Source: Escherichia phage vB_VIPECOMC06 | Sequence record: PQ416618.1 | Strand: one strand, 5' to 3' | DNA: 64,000 nucleotides | Shown here: positions 1-27,686 of the stretch, one piece after another | Numbering within the stretch: position 1 is the first letter of the stretch | Layout of the letters: the number at the start of each line of letters is the position of its first letter | Program-made: the position numbers and the translations under genes | Notes under the pieces: model-generated | The model's database searches: none | Seen by the model: only the letters and a program-made list of their open reading frames with translations | What the model was told of the DNA's origin: nothing

Positions 1-2323
<2,323 letters not shown>

Positions 2324-3148
2324 TTATTGTTTTCTAGGACCAGGAGGGGTTGGTGGAGTCGGGATTGGAATATCATGAGTATAAGTTTGTTCAACTTCGC
2401 CATTCCAATCTTGTGCTTCAACGTCTCTCGGTTTAATTTCTGTATCAACTGATTCAAAAACATTGGCTGCTGTTTGAAGGTCTCGTTCATTAGCATGAAA
2501 ATCAAGATAAGTCGTTTTAATAAGGCCTTCTGCTGCGCCTACCGGAGGATACATCCATCCATTTACTTCAAATGTTAATGACCACTCTAAACGTCGACGG
2601 GATAAATTATCACCGTCTATTTGTTCATCCATTGCTGCTGACATCCATACGACTTTAATATCCCTTTCAAATGGAATATCCTGCCCATATTGCTCAATCA
2701 TAGTCGTATTAAAATGCGGCTGAAAATATGGAATAATTTGCTCAACGATTTGGAACATATCATCTTCATAACGAGTAAAGATGCTCAGTTCAAAAATCAT
2801 TTTAATTGGTGATGGGTTGTATTGGTCTACAATATCCTTAGTCGATTTACTCAAAAGAGAGTTATTCAATATATTCGTTTTAAATGTTGGGTTATAAACG
2901 AAATCTACCATTTGGAGATTTATACGTGGTAGAATAGTTTCGACTTTAGCCACATCTTCTTGTGAGTTTATAGAGGTCCATTTATTAAGTTTCATCATAA
3001 AGTGCTCTTTAGATGCATACGTAATAGGAACTCTAATTAATTTATTGCCTGTAGACAATTGACGGTTAACTTGGATATTTGAAAACAAATCGCCCATCAT
3101 TGTGATATATCGCCTGAACGACGAGTTGTAAAAATAACCAAACATCAT
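2324..3148 (-). CDS. 15: Tail sheath stabiliser / tail completion protein gp15
   Basis: 274 aa (T4 gp15 ~272 aa); position between 14 and 16. Confidence 0.85.
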   Translation of the reverse strand: MMFGYFYNSSFRRYITMMGDLFSNIQVNRQLSTGNKLIRVPITYASKEHFMMKLNKWTSINSQEDVAKVETILPRINLQMVDFVYNPTFKTNILNNSLLSKSTKDIVDQYNPSPIKMIFELSIFTRYEDDMFQIVEQIIPYFQPHFNTTMIEQYGQDIPFERDIKVVWMSAAMDEQIDGDNLSRRRLEWSLTFEVNGWMYPPVGAAEGLIKTTYLDFHANERDLQTAANVFESVDTEIKPRDVEAQDWNGEVEQTYTHDIPIPTPPTPPGPRKQ

Positions 3149-3197: not shown

Positions 3198-3962
3198 TTA
3201 ATTCATAAACCCATCGTCAAATGGTGAATTTTGTCTACCACGGTTGTTAACTACTACATACGGCTCAACGTATTCACTTGCCTCTGAATTGATTTGCTCA
3301 ACTTCAGAATATTCATCGATATTAATGTCATGGATACCGTCAAGATTTCTAACAGGGTTAAGTTCCAAGTCACTAAATTCAGGTATATTGATACCTTCAT
3401 TTTTCTGAAGCACCGGATTGATTTCTTCACCAGAGTAAATAAACTTGCCTGCAGTAATTTTACGAATTGCATTTTTACCTACTTGATAGAATGGGTCATA
3501 TGGTTCAACCCAGTTAATCTCAAACAAACTGTTGTCCATTGGGAAGTATATTAAATCACCTTCCTTGGGCTCCTGATTGTTGACCTGGTGTTTGAAAAGA
3601 CCTGGGTTAATAGATAATGTAACTTCGTCTTGAACTTGCATTCCGAAGTTGTTGAAGAACGATTTCGCTCCTTCATAACCTTCAAAAGAGTTCAGATATG
3701 CAGCAAATTTCCATGCTTTAGTAAATTTATTTTTAAGGTCCTCACCAAAGATAAGGTCCACGGCAACATATTCACGTGGAACATAAAAACATTCAATACC
3801 GCGCATCTGTATGCTTTCTGCCACTAGAACATCAGCTAAGGTTTGACTATTTTCATATTTGTTGAAGTTCACGTATTTGTTTAAAATCTCGGTTTCATTA
3901 GTTTTAGAATAGCCTTCTCGGTTTTCTAACTTTGCAAATAAATTTGAATTATACGTCGACAT
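3198..3962 (-). CDS. 14: Neck protein gp14
   Basis: 254 aa (T4 gp14 ~256 aa); synteny 13-14-15. Confidence 0.85.
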
Positions 3963-4584
3963 AATTCCATCCTGCCCATTTAGGTTTGTTGTTTTTGCAT
4001 CGGCCTATAACCGCGCTTGATGTGATATTAAATTCTTCACCACATTCTTTGCAGGTGTTAAATATTTTACCATTTACACTAACTTTTCGAGCTGCTGGAT
4101 TTTTTGAACCAGAAAAATCAGGATGTCTATGTTTGAAATCTTTCCACATTCTTGCTGTAGATTCTTTACGTTTTCTTAACCCTTCTTCAGTCCATTTTCT
4201 TGATTTTGCGGCGTCAGACATTTTCTTTCTAGATTGGGCTGAACGTTTTTGTCCTATAGATGGATTATCTTCTGGGTTAATATACGACCTTCCGCCTGCA
4301 CCACCTTTAACAAGATTTGCGCAATTTTCTAAAATGGATAATTCATCTACCAGTAACTCTTCAGCTTCATCCATTAGAGCTTTAGATTCAAATGGCTTAG
4401 ACCATATAATTTCTTTTATACAAGACGGACCGTATTTTCTTTTGGCCCTTCGTATAAAGGTACCAGACCCAGTATAAGGGTCTTTTGAAGGGTCTTCGTA
4501 AACTGATTTGTGTTTACCACCATAAATCTTTATACCGGTGGATGTTTCAAATGTTGTAATATACAATCTGTAGTATGTTGCCAT
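3949..4584 (-). mobile_element. Free-standing GIY-YIG homing endonuclease gene (seg-like) inserted between neck genes 13 and 14
   Basis: 211 aa; N-terminal YRLYITT...GIKIYGGKH resembles a GIY-YIG motif; basic NUMOD-like middle region; C-terminal CKECG...C Zn-finger-like; no intergenic space on either side; T4 has no gene at this position. Confidence 0.7.
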
Positions 4585-4585
4585 A

Positions 4586-5512
4586 TTAACCTACCAAAAT
4601 ACCTGCAGGAGGGTCCAGTAAATATAACTCTTCTCGTAAAGCTTCTTTCTCTAAACGAGCTTCTTCAATTAATCGAACACCATCAACAGTGACGCCACCC
4701 GGTAACATCATACCTTGATGTTTAGCAAGAATTTGTCCATTAAGCTCTTTAGCTAATGCAGTTGCATAATCTTTAACCCAGCGGTTGTTATATGCGCCTT
4801 GTTTAGTTGCAGGATCTTCACCAACTCGACGTCCGATCAAATTATGGTCTGGATTATCATAACGTTCAGAAATAGACCATGAATCACGAGGACCTACTTG
4901 ACCGTACCCTACTGTATTTCCTACCATCTTATGGGTCTCGATATAAGAGCGAACATACGATTCAACGATAATGACATCTTTCTGTCTAAAGTTACCCATT
5001 ACTTTTAATTGCTCGTTTGCAGAGTTAAACCAAAAATCTGGAAGAGGAGCAATCATATCTTGAAGCATACCCATATAAGATACTAATTGAGAATAATACC
5101 CGAGATCAGCGCCAAAAGCGTTCGGGCCGTAGAATTTACCGCAATTACTACCCATACCACCTGAAACACCTGCCATTCCTAAAAGGAAATCAGTGAACCA
5201 TGGATAAGTTGCATTACCATCCATTGAAGTAATAGAGCCAACGTTTGTTCTTATAATTCTTGTTACAGCAAATACGTTAGAACCACGCATATCAAATACG
5301 CCGTGACGGTATTTTTCTTCGTCATCAACAAAAAATACATGGAAACCTTTATTCAACCCGTCAAAATGGTATTCGCCATAAAGTTCTAACGCTCGTGAAA
5401 TACAATCATAAATTTGATCTGTAGTTAATTCAACATTTACAATAGGAGCGCCTAAACGACGTAATATTACGTCCTTTAATTCTTTAGGGTTTTGTGCATT
5501 ATAACCTGACAT
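4586..5512 (-). CDS. 13: Neck protein gp13
   Basis: 308 aa (T4 gp13 309 aa); synteny wac-13-14. Confidence 0.85.
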
Positions 5513-5523
5513 ATAAATCCTTT

Positions 5524-5539
5524 AGGGCCCGAAGGCCCT
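5524..5539 (-). terminator. GC hairpin (GGGCC-GAA-GGCCC) between wac stop and gene 13 start; terminator/RNA-stability-like
   Basis: Perfect inverted repeat agggcccgaaggccct seen directly; intergenic location. Confidence 0.4.
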
Positions 5540-5544
5540 TTTCA

Positions 5545-6993
5545 TTAAGCTGTAGGAAGTTCAACCCATGCACCGTCTTTGCGAACATAGAATTTACCGT
5601 CTGAAGGAGCATCTTCAATATATCCAGCTTCCTTAAGAGTTTGGATTTCAGCTTCTGCAGCGGCCAAATCAGTTTCAAGAGTAGCAATTCTAGAAGTTAA
5701 ACCATTAATTGTCGTATCGTGACTTTTAACTGTAGGCAATATACCACGTTCTTCAACAGTCGAACCATTTGGGTTGGTGCCGTTTATAAGAGTATTTAAT
5801 GTGTTTACAGAACCCTTAATCCCTGTGGTATTAGTCCCAACATCAGTTTGAATGTTCTGAATGTCATTACTCATCTCACCGATAGATCCTTCAAGCGCTC
5901 GAGTACGATAAAGCAAAGAGCCGGCTGGTTCCGGTTTCCCACCTGAAGCGTCAACACCAACTACGTTATTTAACCATGACACATTAAAACGCAATCCTGA
6001 CGAAGAATCAGAGCCGACAACAGTGTTCAATGCTCCGATAGCATCAGTATTGAGTTTAATACGTCCTTGGATTGTAGTAGGCAAATCATCGGTGCCGATG
6101 GCAGTTTCTACTGTAGTCAAACGAGGTTTAATACCACCTGATTGATTGAGCTCAAGATTAATGTCGTTTATTGCTGAACTATTCGCATTAGTTGTAGTAA
6201 TAATAGAAGTCGTATTAGGATACCCAATAGACTGTTTAATGCCATCTAAGTCAGCATTTTGACGCGACAAAGTTAAATCAATACCGGAAAGACGACTAAA
6301 TACTGGAGTAGTGAAAGAAGTGCGAGGTCCCATTTCTTCGCGTAAGTGTTCGACTTCATTAGTTAAAGAGCCGACGTCAGAATCAGCAAATTTAGTTTCT
6401 AAATCAGTTAATCGAACACCGTGGTCAACAATCACAGAGCTATTAGTCATAATACGGCGTTTCATACCAGTGCTATCATTTCCTGGAGTAGGAACCCCAT
6501 TAATATCTTGACCGGTATATTGTCCTAATTCATTTTTAATCCAAAGCAGGTCGTTACGAACAGTTCTATAAACTGAATCTGTTTCCTGATTATAAACACC
6601 GATATCATCAGTATTCGCATCAATATGTTCATTCAAATCATTCAATTCACTAGCATGGGTTTGAACTGTGACTTTAATGACATCGATATCTTGGGTGTTC
6701 TGACCAATCTGTGCAAGTGCTTCGACGTCCCCGGAAACATCTAAAATACCTTGAATAACTTTTATATCTTCATTGGCTGTATTCAAAGAAGATGCTATAG
6801 TTTTAATATTAGTATCTAACGCTTCTACGTTACGTTGAACTTCAACAATAGGACGGTTCATTACACCTTCAGAACCGTATTTTGTATCAGCACCGGTAAT
6901 TTCTTCGTCGTTTTTAATCCATTCAATACGACTCTGACCCGCATCTGGCGGGCCGTCAACATATGGTAAATCTACCAGAGTTATATCAGCCAT
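5545..6993 (-). CDS. wac: Fibritin (whisker protein) with C-terminal foldon
   Basis: 482 aa; N-terminus [28 protein letters not shown] and C-terminal foldon GYIEDAPSDGKFYVRKDGAWVELPTA match T4 Wac. Confidence 0.92.
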   Translation of the reverse strand: MADITLVDLPYVDGPPDAGQSRIEWIKNDEEITGADTKYGSEGVMNRPIVEVQRNVEALDTNIKTIASSLNTANEDIKVIQGILDVSGDVEALAQIGQNTQDIDVIKVTVQTHASELNDLNEHIDANTDDIGVYNQETDSVYRTVRNDLLWIKNELGQYTGQDINGVPTPGNDSTGMKRRIMTNSSVIVDHGVRLTDLETKFADSDVGSLTNEVEHLREEMGPRTSFTTPVFSRLSGIDLTLSRQNADLDGIKQSIGYPNTTSIITTTNANSSAINDINLELNQSGGIKPRLTTVETAIGTDDLPTTIQGRIKLNTDAIGALNTVVGSDSSSGLRFNVSWLNNVVGVDASGGKPEPAGSLLYRTRALEGSIGEMSNDIQNIQTDVGTNTTGIKGSVNTLNTLINGTNPNGSTVEERGILPTVKSHDTTINGLTSRIATLETDLAAAEAEIQTLKEAGYIEDAPSDGKFYVRKDGAWVELPTA

Positions 6994-8576
6994 TATTTTA
7001 CCTTAATAATATAGTTTAAAGAAATATTCCATGGACGAGTTTCATTTCCAATTAATTCTGGACGATTCATGGTATATTTAGAGTTACGCTGAGACGCTGG
7101 ATCAATTTCATATCCTTCGTTAGTAAAATATGAACGGTTATCCCAGTCAAGTCCTTTACGAGTACCAACAAAGTTTGAACGACGAGTATTACCAAATGCA
7201 CCGGAATCATCGTGTTCGCCAAAACCACCAGCATGTTTATGATATGACATCTGTTGTTTTTGCACTTCACCGACATATCCACCAGTACAACCAACTCCTA
7301 AACGAGGTTTACCAAATTGGTCATTACCATTAACATTAGGGTTAGTTAAATGTGTACCACGACCTGAGCCGCGAACAAATAATCCGCGCATATCAGGCAA
7401 GCCCGGGTTAGAAGAGCTACCACCATATCGTGTCCCAATTCTGGAAGCATATACCGGACATTCTGAAGCAGAAACGGTCCCACCGTGACAGAAGCGCCAG
7501 TCAGAACTCGGTAAACTATCTGCAGCCCACATTGTAATAGAGCCAACAGGAAGAATTCGGTCTAATTCATTTTGAGTCACAATACGATTGCCTTGAATAT
7601 AACCACCAGTCATATTGACATTACCAGTTATATTAGCTCCACCAGAACCAACCGTCAACGTATTATTAATGCGAAGCGTGCCGTTAATAGTTTGTCCACC
7701 TCGTTGGTGGATAACATCAGCATTCCAAGCAAGGGCAGAAGAACCATCACCACCTGATTGGCTACCCGCTTGTGTAGTTAAACGAACAACTCCACGTAAA
7801 GAAGTTGTAGCCCCACGCCCGTTTAATGTTGCGCCGGTCACTACAACTGAAGAGTTGTTACTATTTACTTCAGTCTGTGTCCCTAGTTTAACGACGCCTT
7901 TATTAGTTTCTGATGCTACTGAATTCATAAAGGTATAAGGTGAAATTGCATAGCCTTCACGCAGGGTGCCTTGTTGTGCTTGTGCAACTGTAGCTAAACG
8001 AACAACACCGGTAATAGATTCGGTGGCGTCACTATTATTTGGAGCAATTTGCGAAATAAGTTTAATTGCTAATTGCTGTGTTTTTAACGGGGTCATTGCC
8101 GTTGTATCGTCAGAACCAGCTAATGCCGCAGCAGAAGTTGAAATTTTAATTACACCATTTGTTGCTTCTGTTGACACTTTTGTCTGAAATACATTGTCTA
8201 TTTTTTGATTCAATTTAAGCGGAGTAATTGATGCATCGTCAATAGCTCCGGTTACTGCTTCATCTTCAGTAGCATAACGAGTTAAACCATATTGTGTTTC
8301 GGTTGCATTAGGATATTGTAGACGAGCATTCAGTGTTGCCGGAGTAACAGCTTTACTATTATCTAATCCATCAATAACTTCTTGTGGAGTAGCTATTTGA
8401 ATAATTCCTGGTGTAGTAGTTGTTGCTTCCGGTACGCCATTAACACCTGAAGGAGAAATAGCAGCTAATGCGGCTTGGACATTAGTGACTGTATCTGGAA
8501 AATTCGACCCCGTAGGGTCGAATTCAACGTAAACGGATTCGTTTGAAACGTGTTGGTATGTATTGTTATTACTCAT
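6993..8576 (-). CDS. 12: Short tail fibre protein gp12
   Basis: 527 aa, identical length to T4 gp12; C-terminal receptor-binding region; synteny 11-12-wac. Confidence 0.9.
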
Positions 8577-27017: not shown

Positions 27018-27686
27018 ATGTTCCATTACACTTATAAAATAACAAATAAAATTAATAATAAAATCTATATAGGCGCTCATTCTACCGAAAATTTAGATGA
27101 TGGATATATGGGTTCTGGTAAATTATTAAAAAGAGCCCAAGACAAGTATGGTATAGAAAATTTTAATAAAGAAATTTTAGAATTCTTTGACACTAAAGAG
27201 CAGATGTTTGAAGCCGAGAAAAATATCGTAAACGAAGAATTTTTGAATCGTTCTGACGTATATAATTTAAAACTTGGTGGCGAAGGTGGTTGGGACCATT
27301 TAAATACTTACGAATTTAATTATAAAAAGAAAGAAGCCTCTATTAAAGGAGCCAAAGCTTTTAAAGAGAGATTTGATTCTGATGAAGTGCTTCAAGAAAA
27401 ATATCGTAAAATGGGTTCAGAGAAATTAAAGCATCTGTGGACTTTACCTGAATACAGAGAAAAATTCTCTAGCACTAAGTCGTTTTTAAATAAAAATCAT
27501 ACTTCCGAAACTATTGCTAAAATGAAAGATACCCACGCCAGGAACAAACACCAACAAGGCGAGAAAAATTCCCAGTTTGGTACTATGTGGATTCATTCAT
27601 TAGAAGAAAAGAAATCTAAGAAAATTAAGAAAACCGATCCTATTCCGGAAGGTTGGATTAAAGGCTATAAACTAAAATTTAAGTGA
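27018..27686 (+). mobile_element. GIY-YIG homing endonuclease (SegB-like) immediately 3' of the tRNA
   Basis: 222 aa; N-terminal YTYKITNKINNKIYIGAHS GIY-YIG motif; C-terminal NUMOD-like basic repeats; T4 segB (~221 aa) also lies in the tRNA cluster. Confidence 0.75.

Follow-up and report, generated by a model that had tools for sequence, protein, structure and literature searches.

A predicted Seg-type GIY-YIG homing endonuclease gene between neck genes 13 and 14 of a T4-like phage

The gene located between the neck protein genes 13 and 14 of Escherichia phage vB_VIPECOMC06 (PQ416618.1), a T4-like phage of the genus Mosigvirus, is very probably a free-standing, promoter-less gene for a Seg-type GIY-YIG homing endonuclease that lies within the late neck-gene transcript and would undergo homing with marker exclusion. 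An original prediction, made from the letters of the DNA alone, had assigned a homing endonuclease to this site, and this identity is supported by the fold and the domains of the protein as well as by its sporadic distribution at one fixed site. The window, i.e. the whole stretch of DNA analysed, comprises 64,000 nucleotides, and its late structural genes are encoded on the minus strand (Table 1). Position, length and description of the open reading frame (ORF) had been predicted correctly; its strand had to be corrected to minus.

Free-standing Seg-like GIY-YIG genes have been described in depth (PMC2988022, PMC2330249, PMC1564403), and the gene is already annotated in public genomes, but uncharacterised. 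It is listed as 'GIY-YIG endonuclease' or 'homing endonuclease' in RPN187, moskry, mogra, F2, SQ17, NicPhage, JM10 and others, and its counterparts at the 13/14 junction of Phi1, SP18 and VR26 are labelled 'segC', the annotations of Phi1 and SP18 dating from around 2010. In the literature we found no study of the cleavage, homing or exclusion activity of a 13/14 endonuclease. We rejected a chance frame and an antisense artefact as explanations of the ORF. Conversely, a 163-aa ORF on the opposite strand (3986-4477, +) is an antisense shadow of the endonuclease gene and has no independent support.

Table 1. Features of the 13/14 region and neighbouring late genes, in positions of the window
Feature	Position	Strand	Basis
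Gene 17	1-1836	-	
Gene 16	1820-2314	-	
Gene 15	2324-3148	-	
Gene 14 (neck protein / head closure Hc2)	3198-3962	-	PF11649, E 1.6e-126
Recoded patch, 5' end of gene 14	3900-3962	-	17 substitutions in 63 nt
Seg-like GIY-YIG homing endonuclease ORF (predicted), 211 aa	3949-4584	-	PHROG 314, E 1.7e-37; annotated 99%-identical copies
Surrogate gene 14 initiation region in the 3' end of the endonuclease gene	3960-3973	-	Sequence
I-TevI-type helix-turn-helix DNA-binding domain (predicted), C-terminal (aa 157-208)	3961-4116	-	PF20987 and 1i3j matches
Extra 622 bp relative to endonuclease-free Mosigviruses	3963-4584	-	Locus lengths 3501 vs 2879; flanks align gap-free
Basic linker with two helices, NUMOD3-like (predicted; aa 105-150)	4135-4272	-	NUMOD3 scores and helices of the model
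GIY-YIG catalytic domain (predicted), N-terminal (aa 1 to ~92)	4309-4584	-	Y8, Y21-G-G23, E75/E76, N90
Captured translation-initiation region	4582-4595	-	Junction alignment of the window, RPN187, F27, KAW3E185 and T4
Gene 13 (neck protein / head-tail adaptor Ad2)	4586-5512	-	PHROG 211 and annotation in relatives
wac	5545-6993	-	
Gene 12	6993-8576	-	

Anatomy of the insertion and exchange of start sites

The ATG of the endonuclease gene (4584-4582) lies 1 nt past the stop codon of gene 13 (TAA-T-ATG), and the last 14 nt of the ORF overlap the start of gene 14. Thus, the predicted overlap holds, but the predicted lack of any spacer on the gene 13 side has to be amended by this single nucleotide. 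T4 shows the identical layout of gene 13 stop, T and gene 14 start with no gene in between, and its junction sequence bears out the earlier statement that T4 has no gene at this place.

The captured translation-initiation region is composed of GGTAGG (4590-4595), the gene 13 stop codon TAA (4586-4588), one T and the ATG (4582-4584), and in empty alleles this sequence serves gene 14 at the same position. In the empty alleles of Mosigvirus and in T4 gene 14 starts as ...GGTAGGTTAAT-ATGGCAACTTATGAT (MATYDKNLF). In the window it is the endonuclease that starts from this upstream sequence and ATG, ATGGCAACATACTAC (MATYYRLY), and gene 14 restarts 622 nt downstream as ATGTCGACGTATAAT (MSTYNSNLF). The corresponding sequences in Gaprivervirus are ATGGCTACATATGAC (MATYDANLF) for the empty allele and ATGGCTACATATTAT (MATYYRLY) for the endonuclease start of VR26, where gene 14 restarts with MRNS-YDASLF and the insert measures 631 nt. 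Slopekvirus has an empty allele reading taaggaggaaaa-ATGCAAAAT (MQNWDENLF), an endonuclease that uses the same Shine-Dalgarno (SD) sequence and ATG, ATGCACTAT (MHYRLY), and a gene 14 restart with MRD-WDENLF, the insert being 607 nt long.

The replacement for the lost start site is located in the 3' end of the endonuclease gene. In the window it comprises AGGATGG (3967-3973) and an ATG (3960-3962) that is made up from the Tyr208 codon TAT and the following G, and this W-N/K-Y/ATG arrangement recurs in VR26, SP18, ER54 and Phi1. In every genus the new gene 14 ATG is formed from a conserved C-terminal Tyr codon (TAT) of the endonuclease plus the next G, and an SD-like GGATGG, GGAGGG or GGAAGGAG lies ahead of it within the last endonuclease codons. 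The shared position of SD and ATG at the 5' end together with the SD and ATG at the 3' end indicate that the element captures the initiation region of gene 14 and donates a surrogate. This start-site swap, with captured SD/ATG and exact junctions, is seen in three genera. As the MAT(Y) sequence is shared and the N-terminus is 1-2 residues longer in the MATY forms, the endonuclease may be regarded as translationally fused to codons 1-3 of gene 14.

On the coding strand no consensus T4 late promoter (TATAAATA) is found in the ORF or just upstream of it, the nearest one being at 11949-11942; there are only versions with one mismatch, e.g. TATAAAGA at 4534-4527 inside the ORF, which we discounted as evidence. 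Scans for sigma-70 promoters and terminators gave background levels, and minimum free energy folds of the region -45..+35 around the start sites were weak (-12.1 and -9.8 kcal/mol) and revealed no convincing sequestration of the start sites by RNA structure. The lack of a late promoter in or near the ORF suggests a promoter-less cassette, as described for segC, segF and segG in T4 (PMC2988022), and is consistent with the tight co-transcription that had been anticipated for this gene. Presumably, the endonuclease gene shares a transcript with genes 13 and 14, and its translation begins at the captured gene 14 start.

Two neighbouring elements deserve mention. In Phi1 a 66-nt spacer (1435-1500) separates gene 13 from the endonuclease gene, unlike in the other genera, and contains a strong SD and a 10-bp hairpin (atgttctcgt/acgagaacat) besides TTGACT...TATGAT, which looks like a promoter; in this the spacer is similar to the promoter-stem-loop cassettes known from Phi1 and RB49 (PMC2839356). 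In the window the intergenic region between wac and gene 13 contains a perfect GC-rich hairpin (5524-5539; AGGGCC-TTCG-GGCCCT on the coding strand) immediately before the SD of gene 13. This hairpin is labelled 'terminator' in KAW3E185, yet the coding strand has no T-run, and its role could be in RNA stability or processing instead of termination.

Distribution among relatives and the recoded start of gene 14

The 13-14 region matches 204 phage records, 12 of which carry the endonuclease ORF with 98.3-99.4% identity; some 140 others are 95-99% identical and exactly 622 bp shorter. Carriers account for 12 of ~150 records in Mosigvirus, for ~7 of 32 in Gaprivervirus (VR26, SP18, RZ and others) and for ~16 of 111 in Slopekvirus (Klebsiella KP15-like), and vB_EcoM_005 is a Dhakavirus carrier at the same junction. 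The homologs at the 13/14 junction of other genera have 55-61% identity, the one of Krischvirus Phi1 being more distant (28.6%); in comparison with its sister phage RB49 segC is reported to be specific to Phi1 (PMC2839356). Members of the subfamily (>50% identity) were not seen at loci other than 13/14. If a distant 20-kb region of the window is considered, carriers occur among the closest relatives side by side with records that are not on the list of carriers, and the presence of the endonuclease does not track overall relatedness. The gene is thus polymorphic for presence and absence at one fixed site in three genera. The comparison of 13/14 junctions in related phages, which had been suggested along with the original prediction, defined the boundaries of the 622-bp insertion, and an ortholog at this site in all relatives, named there as counter-evidence, was not found, as most close relatives lack the gene.

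The divergence of the endonuclease between genera is similar to that of the adjacent genes (identities of 59 vs 65/62%, 55.5 vs 49/52% and 49 vs 57/48% for the endonuclease vs gp13/gp14), suggesting that its association with the 13/14 junction is old.

Several database entries at this locus call for comment. The cluster of 99%-identical proteins includes a 'hypothetical protein [Shigella flexneri]' from a 90-kb contig, presumably a phage contig within a bacterial assembly. The endonuclease of VR26 is annotated from 1555, and homology and the MATYYRLY start point to 1501 (1501-2136). In SP18 the endonuclease homolog occupies 1006-1641 and gp14 is annotated at 1736-2422 (228 aa); judged by homology to VR26, SP18 gp14 probably starts at the ATG overlapping the 3' end of the endonuclease gene. 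The neck genes near the endonuclease homolog of vB_EcoM_005 are annotated as short fragments of 378, 477 and 171 nt, which probably reflect sequencing frameshifts and not biology.

The insertion is accompanied by a patch of recoded sequence where gene 14 begins. A comparison with two empty Mosigviruses shows 16-17 substitutions from nt 1 to nt 50-62 of gene 14 in the window and beyond this about one per 130 nt, and towards gene 13 the nearest 74-107 nt are free of substitutions (binomial P = 1e-16 for the clustering). The changes comprise A2S, D5N, K6S and G16E plus about 10 synonymous ones, and pS is 0.79 in the patch vs 0.044 in the rest of gene 14, i.e. synonymous sites are saturated. The linkage is perfect, as the patch is found in 12 of 12 Mosigvirus carriers and in none of ~210 other records, with 80.7% for the best non-carrier match. 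In Gaprivervirus the first 78 nt of gene 14 contain 16 substitutions (binomial P = 3e-9), with a pS of 0.61 vs 0.10 outside. On the other side of the insert VR26 has 0 mismatches over 848 nt of left flank, and in SP18 the last ~33 nt of gene 13 are diverged as well. The C-terminus of SP18 gp13 reads ...PAGILIG vs ...APTPILVG in other Gapriverviruses and resembles the ...PPAGILVG of Mosigvirus, which suggests a left-side co-conversion tract from another lineage. The changes in Slopekvirus carriers are confined to codons 2-3, and no patch extends beyond codon 3; hence the patch is not required for carriage of the endonuclease gene.

The first 26 nt of gene 14 are identical at 25 of 26 positions in T4 and in the empty alleles of Mosigvirus, and the carrier differs at 8-9. 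Such identity marks a conserved sequence of the type homing endonucleases usually target. Flanking tracts that look co-converted and differences between carrier and empty alleles at the putative target are both present, and a conserved target in an essential gene, its disruption or recoding in carriers and flanking conversion tracts are, as far as they can be read from the alignments, classical signatures of homing. Neither the start-site swap nor the recoded patch with its perfect linkage was found described in the literature; both fit established homing-endonuclease biology, e.g. the presence of essential signals within segG.

The patch itself is a candidate recognition or immunity region, or a co-conversion tract, and may be donor DNA only. 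It is quite possible, if short of probable, that it represents co-converted DNA from a divergent, unsampled lineage and that the real cleavage site lies elsewhere. Saturated synonymous sites are expected for foreign DNA, Slopekvirus carriers do without the patch, and distant cleavage, possibly hundreds of bp away, is typical of free-standing enzymes, e.g. SegF and SegG (PMC2988022). A donor of the patch was found in no endonuclease-free phage, and the nearest endonuclease homolog among 5.8 billion proteins has 63% identity, implying that the donor is unsampled. Against this stands the distribution of the patch, which is present in every Mosigvirus carrier and absent from every endonuclease-free genome, though recombination has homogenised the sequence beyond ~62 nt. 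Moreover, the perfect match of VR26 on the opposite side suggests selection against separating endonuclease and patch, and the first 26 nt, nearly invariant in the empty alleles of T4 and Mosigvirus, are altered in the carrier.

Alternatively, and we advance this tentatively as a possible but rather doubtful reading, the endonuclease and the recoded gene 14 start form an old linked haplotype that is polymorphic within genera, with the start-site swap as a conserved, intron-free route of invasion into the start of an essential coding sequence. Recombination would then erase all divergence save the ~60-80 nt that set sensitivity or immunity. If so, the locus would be a natural homing element spanning several genera, both self-immunising and addictive, excision being lethal, and the patch would directly mark the recognition site.

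Domain architecture and selection

Sequence profiles and a structural model indicate that the ORF is a Seg-type GIY-YIG nuclease with a basic helical linker and an I-TevI-type helix-turn-helix (HTH) domain, and without a zinc finger. Searches with the single sequence remain below the Pfam cutoffs for the I-TevI DNA-binding domain (I-TevI_DNA-bd, PF20987; 22.6 bits, cutoff 27) and NUMOD3 (17.2 bits, cutoff 20.4), and these two domains are matched by 8 of 11 and 5 of 11 family members, respectively. The Pfam profiles GIY-YIG (PF01541) and SegE_GIY-YIG / PF19835 gave no match to the ORF, and the NCBIfam 'group I intron endonuclease' (TIGR01453) covers residues 95-208 only, leaving the N-terminal part unmatched. 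Thus, the Pfam and NCBIfam libraries recognise the C-terminal half alone. PHROG 314 ('homing endonuclease') matches over the full length.

From a search of 5.8 billion proteins we built a family alignment of 12 members that are 52-63% identical. The AlphaFold2 model based on this alignment has a mean pLDDT of 83 (~90 across residues 1-90) and predicts a three-stranded β-sheet with flanking helices, as in the GIY-YIG fold, followed by linker helices at 116-128 and 133-149. The top Foldseek match of the model is 1i3j (prob 1.0), and the family profile also matches PDB 1i3j (E 2.7e-5). When the family profile was compared by hhalign with a canonical GIY-YIG profile built from I-TevI, T4 SegC, Phi1 'SegC' and the second seg gene of the window, residues 2-101 aligned with 97.2% probability (E 4.5e-11). 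The profile comparison and the helical, NUMOD3-like linker agree with the GIY-YIG-like N-terminus and the NUMOD-like basic region that had been predicted, and instead of the non-nuclease fold named as possible counter-evidence we obtained a predicted GIY-YIG nuclease with an I-TevI-like DNA-binding domain.

The motif residues map onto I-TevI as Y8 to Y6, Y21 to Y17, G23 to G19 and N90 to N90, and the counterpart of I-TevI E75 is E75 according to MAFFT and E76 according to hhalign. Y8, Y21, G23, E75/E76 and N90 are invariant across the 12-member family. The catalytic Arg of I-TevI, R27, sits in a 9-residue segment, the counterpart of which is missing from the endonuclease family and from T4 SegC. 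Positions 24-26 are K24-H25-K26 in this endonuclease and K24-R25-H26 in its 11 relatives. As to the zinc finger of I-TevI, PF22635 matches I-TevI only, and the family alignment contains no conserved Cys4 pattern. A zinc finger is no defining feature of Seg proteins in general.

The endonuclease evolves under purifying selection, as seen from the comparison of the Gaprivervirus pair VR26 and SP18; the Mosigvirus copies are too similar for such a test (2 substitutions). The pair shows 36.5 synonymous and 8.5 non-synonymous differences in the endonuclease gene, yielding an omega of 0.052, which is indistinguishable from the values for gp13 (0.050) and gp14 (0.048).

These data bear on whether the gene might be a catalytically dead or decaying relic, kept only because its 3' end carries the ribosome-binding site (RBS) and start of gene 14 so that its loss is lethal. 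The embedded SD and ATG, the K-H-K in place of the otherwise conserved K-R-H, the catalytic Arg that cannot be mapped and the failure of the Pfam GIY-YIG profile could all be taken in this way. We nevertheless consider a relic unlikely, since the ORF is full length and keeps all the invariant motif residues, and the H-K at positions 25-26 is shared by T4 SegC, which is experimentally active (PMC2988022 Table 1). Furthermore, expression of gene 14 needs the last ~20 nt only, yet the whole ORF has an omega of 0.05 in the Gaprivervirus pair, and the gene is still polymorphic in three genera, as expected of a cycling element. Very unlikely, finally, is an active nuclease with long vertical residence and repeated loss, whose main role would be phage-phage or phage-host interference or another domesticated function: its divergence between genera and the selection on it are comparable to those of its essential neighbours, and Seg enzymes are reported to bring the carrier phage benefits beyond homing (PMC13096335), but the gene is dispensable, 80-90% of close relatives having no endonuclease, the linked saturated patch and the SP18 gene 13 patch look like gene-conversion tracts, and interference and homing are not mutually exclusive, as marker exclusion is interference.

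Proposed homing cycle and comparison with known systems

Based on these findings we favour homing with marker exclusion, in which cleavage and exclusion are inferred by analogy with T4 SegF, SegG and SegB (PMC2988022, PMC2330249). During late mixed infection the C-terminal domain would bind the DNA of an endonuclease-free phage where gene 14 begins and at the intact 13/14 junction, and the GIY-YIG domain would then introduce a double-strand break into this co-infecting genome. In recombination-dependent repair the carrier genome would serve as template for copying the endonuclease gene together with adjacent markers, resulting in intronless homing with localized marker exclusion. The carrier would be immune because its site is interrupted by the insert and, in Mosigvirus and Gaprivervirus, also because the neighbouring sequence has been recoded. 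As gene 14 now has its start within the endonuclease gene, the phage would not survive an imprecise deletion, and this would favour retention. Precedents exist for active Seg enzymes that are free-standing, for cassettes lacking a promoter and for essential signals located within endonuclease genes (PMC2988022). Many Seg enzymes cut hundreds of bp away from their insertion site (PMC2988022), and the target thus need not be the 13/14 junction.

For genome annotation this has little impact, as the gene is already labelled in about a dozen near-identical phage records. It does, however, offer a clean natural system, with carrier and empty alleles in at least three genera and one precise insert at the start of an essential late gene. 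The short recoded tract points to a likely recognition site, and target mapping, immunity swaps and marker-exclusion crosses would be straightforward. In therapeutic cocktails containing Mosigviruses, co-infecting relatives could swap the neck-gene region asymmetrically.

Among known systems, I-TevI from the td group I intron of T4 is intron-encoded, whereas the 13/14 gene is free-standing and inserted at a start codon; moreover, I-TevI has a zinc finger and the R27/H31 segment, the 13/14 endonuclease neither of them. Aeh1 mobE, which splits nrdA, is an endonuclease gene within an essential reading frame that retains its function without intron or intein. MobE, however, is an HNH and not a GIY-YIG enzyme, and nrdA is split into two large polypeptides, whereas at 13/14 only the first 2-3 codons of gene 14 are displaced and replaced. 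With T4 SegF and SegG the 13/14 gene has in common that they are free-standing Seg genes beside essential genes and that carrier and recipient target alleles differ near the insert. In addition, segG carries signals of the downstream essential gene inside its ORF, e.g. gene 32 promoters (PMC2988022). The sequence similarity is weak, though (24% for SegG; the SegF match covers ~45% of the protein), the embedded signal at 13/14 is an RBS plus start codon and not a promoter, and the 13/14 endonuclease uses the original start site of the displaced gene.

The best-matching characterised enzyme is T4 SegC with 33.8-37% identity (E 1e-9 to 3e-10; 33.8% over 92% of the protein with E 1e-9 in one alignment). 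Both have the Seg-type core (YxxY... IY[VG]G.HK... D.Y.GSG... KYG... AE... N) without the R27 helix of I-TevI, and both are promoter-less cassettes within a late structural-gene transcript (PMC2988022). Nevertheless, segC is located between 5.1 and 5.3, has a target other than 13/14, and encodes a protein of 140 aa without the C-terminal I-TevI-type HTH domain. We therefore rejected the 13/14 gene as an orthologue of T4 segC, given the different locus, the identity of 34-37%, limited to the nuclease domain, and the HTH domain missing from T4 SegC; the label 'segC' given to the 13/14 genes in Phi1, SP18 and VR26 reflects similarity, not orthology. The window contains a second, canonical Seg-like GIY-YIG ORF (27018-27686, +; 222 aa, MFHYTYKITNKINNKIYIGAHSTENLDDGYMGSG...) with identities of 54% to T4 SegC over the nuclease domain (E 5e-32), 41% to Phi1 'SegC' and 35% to the 13/14 endonuclease. 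This ORF is thus more closely related to T4 SegC than the 13/14 gene is.
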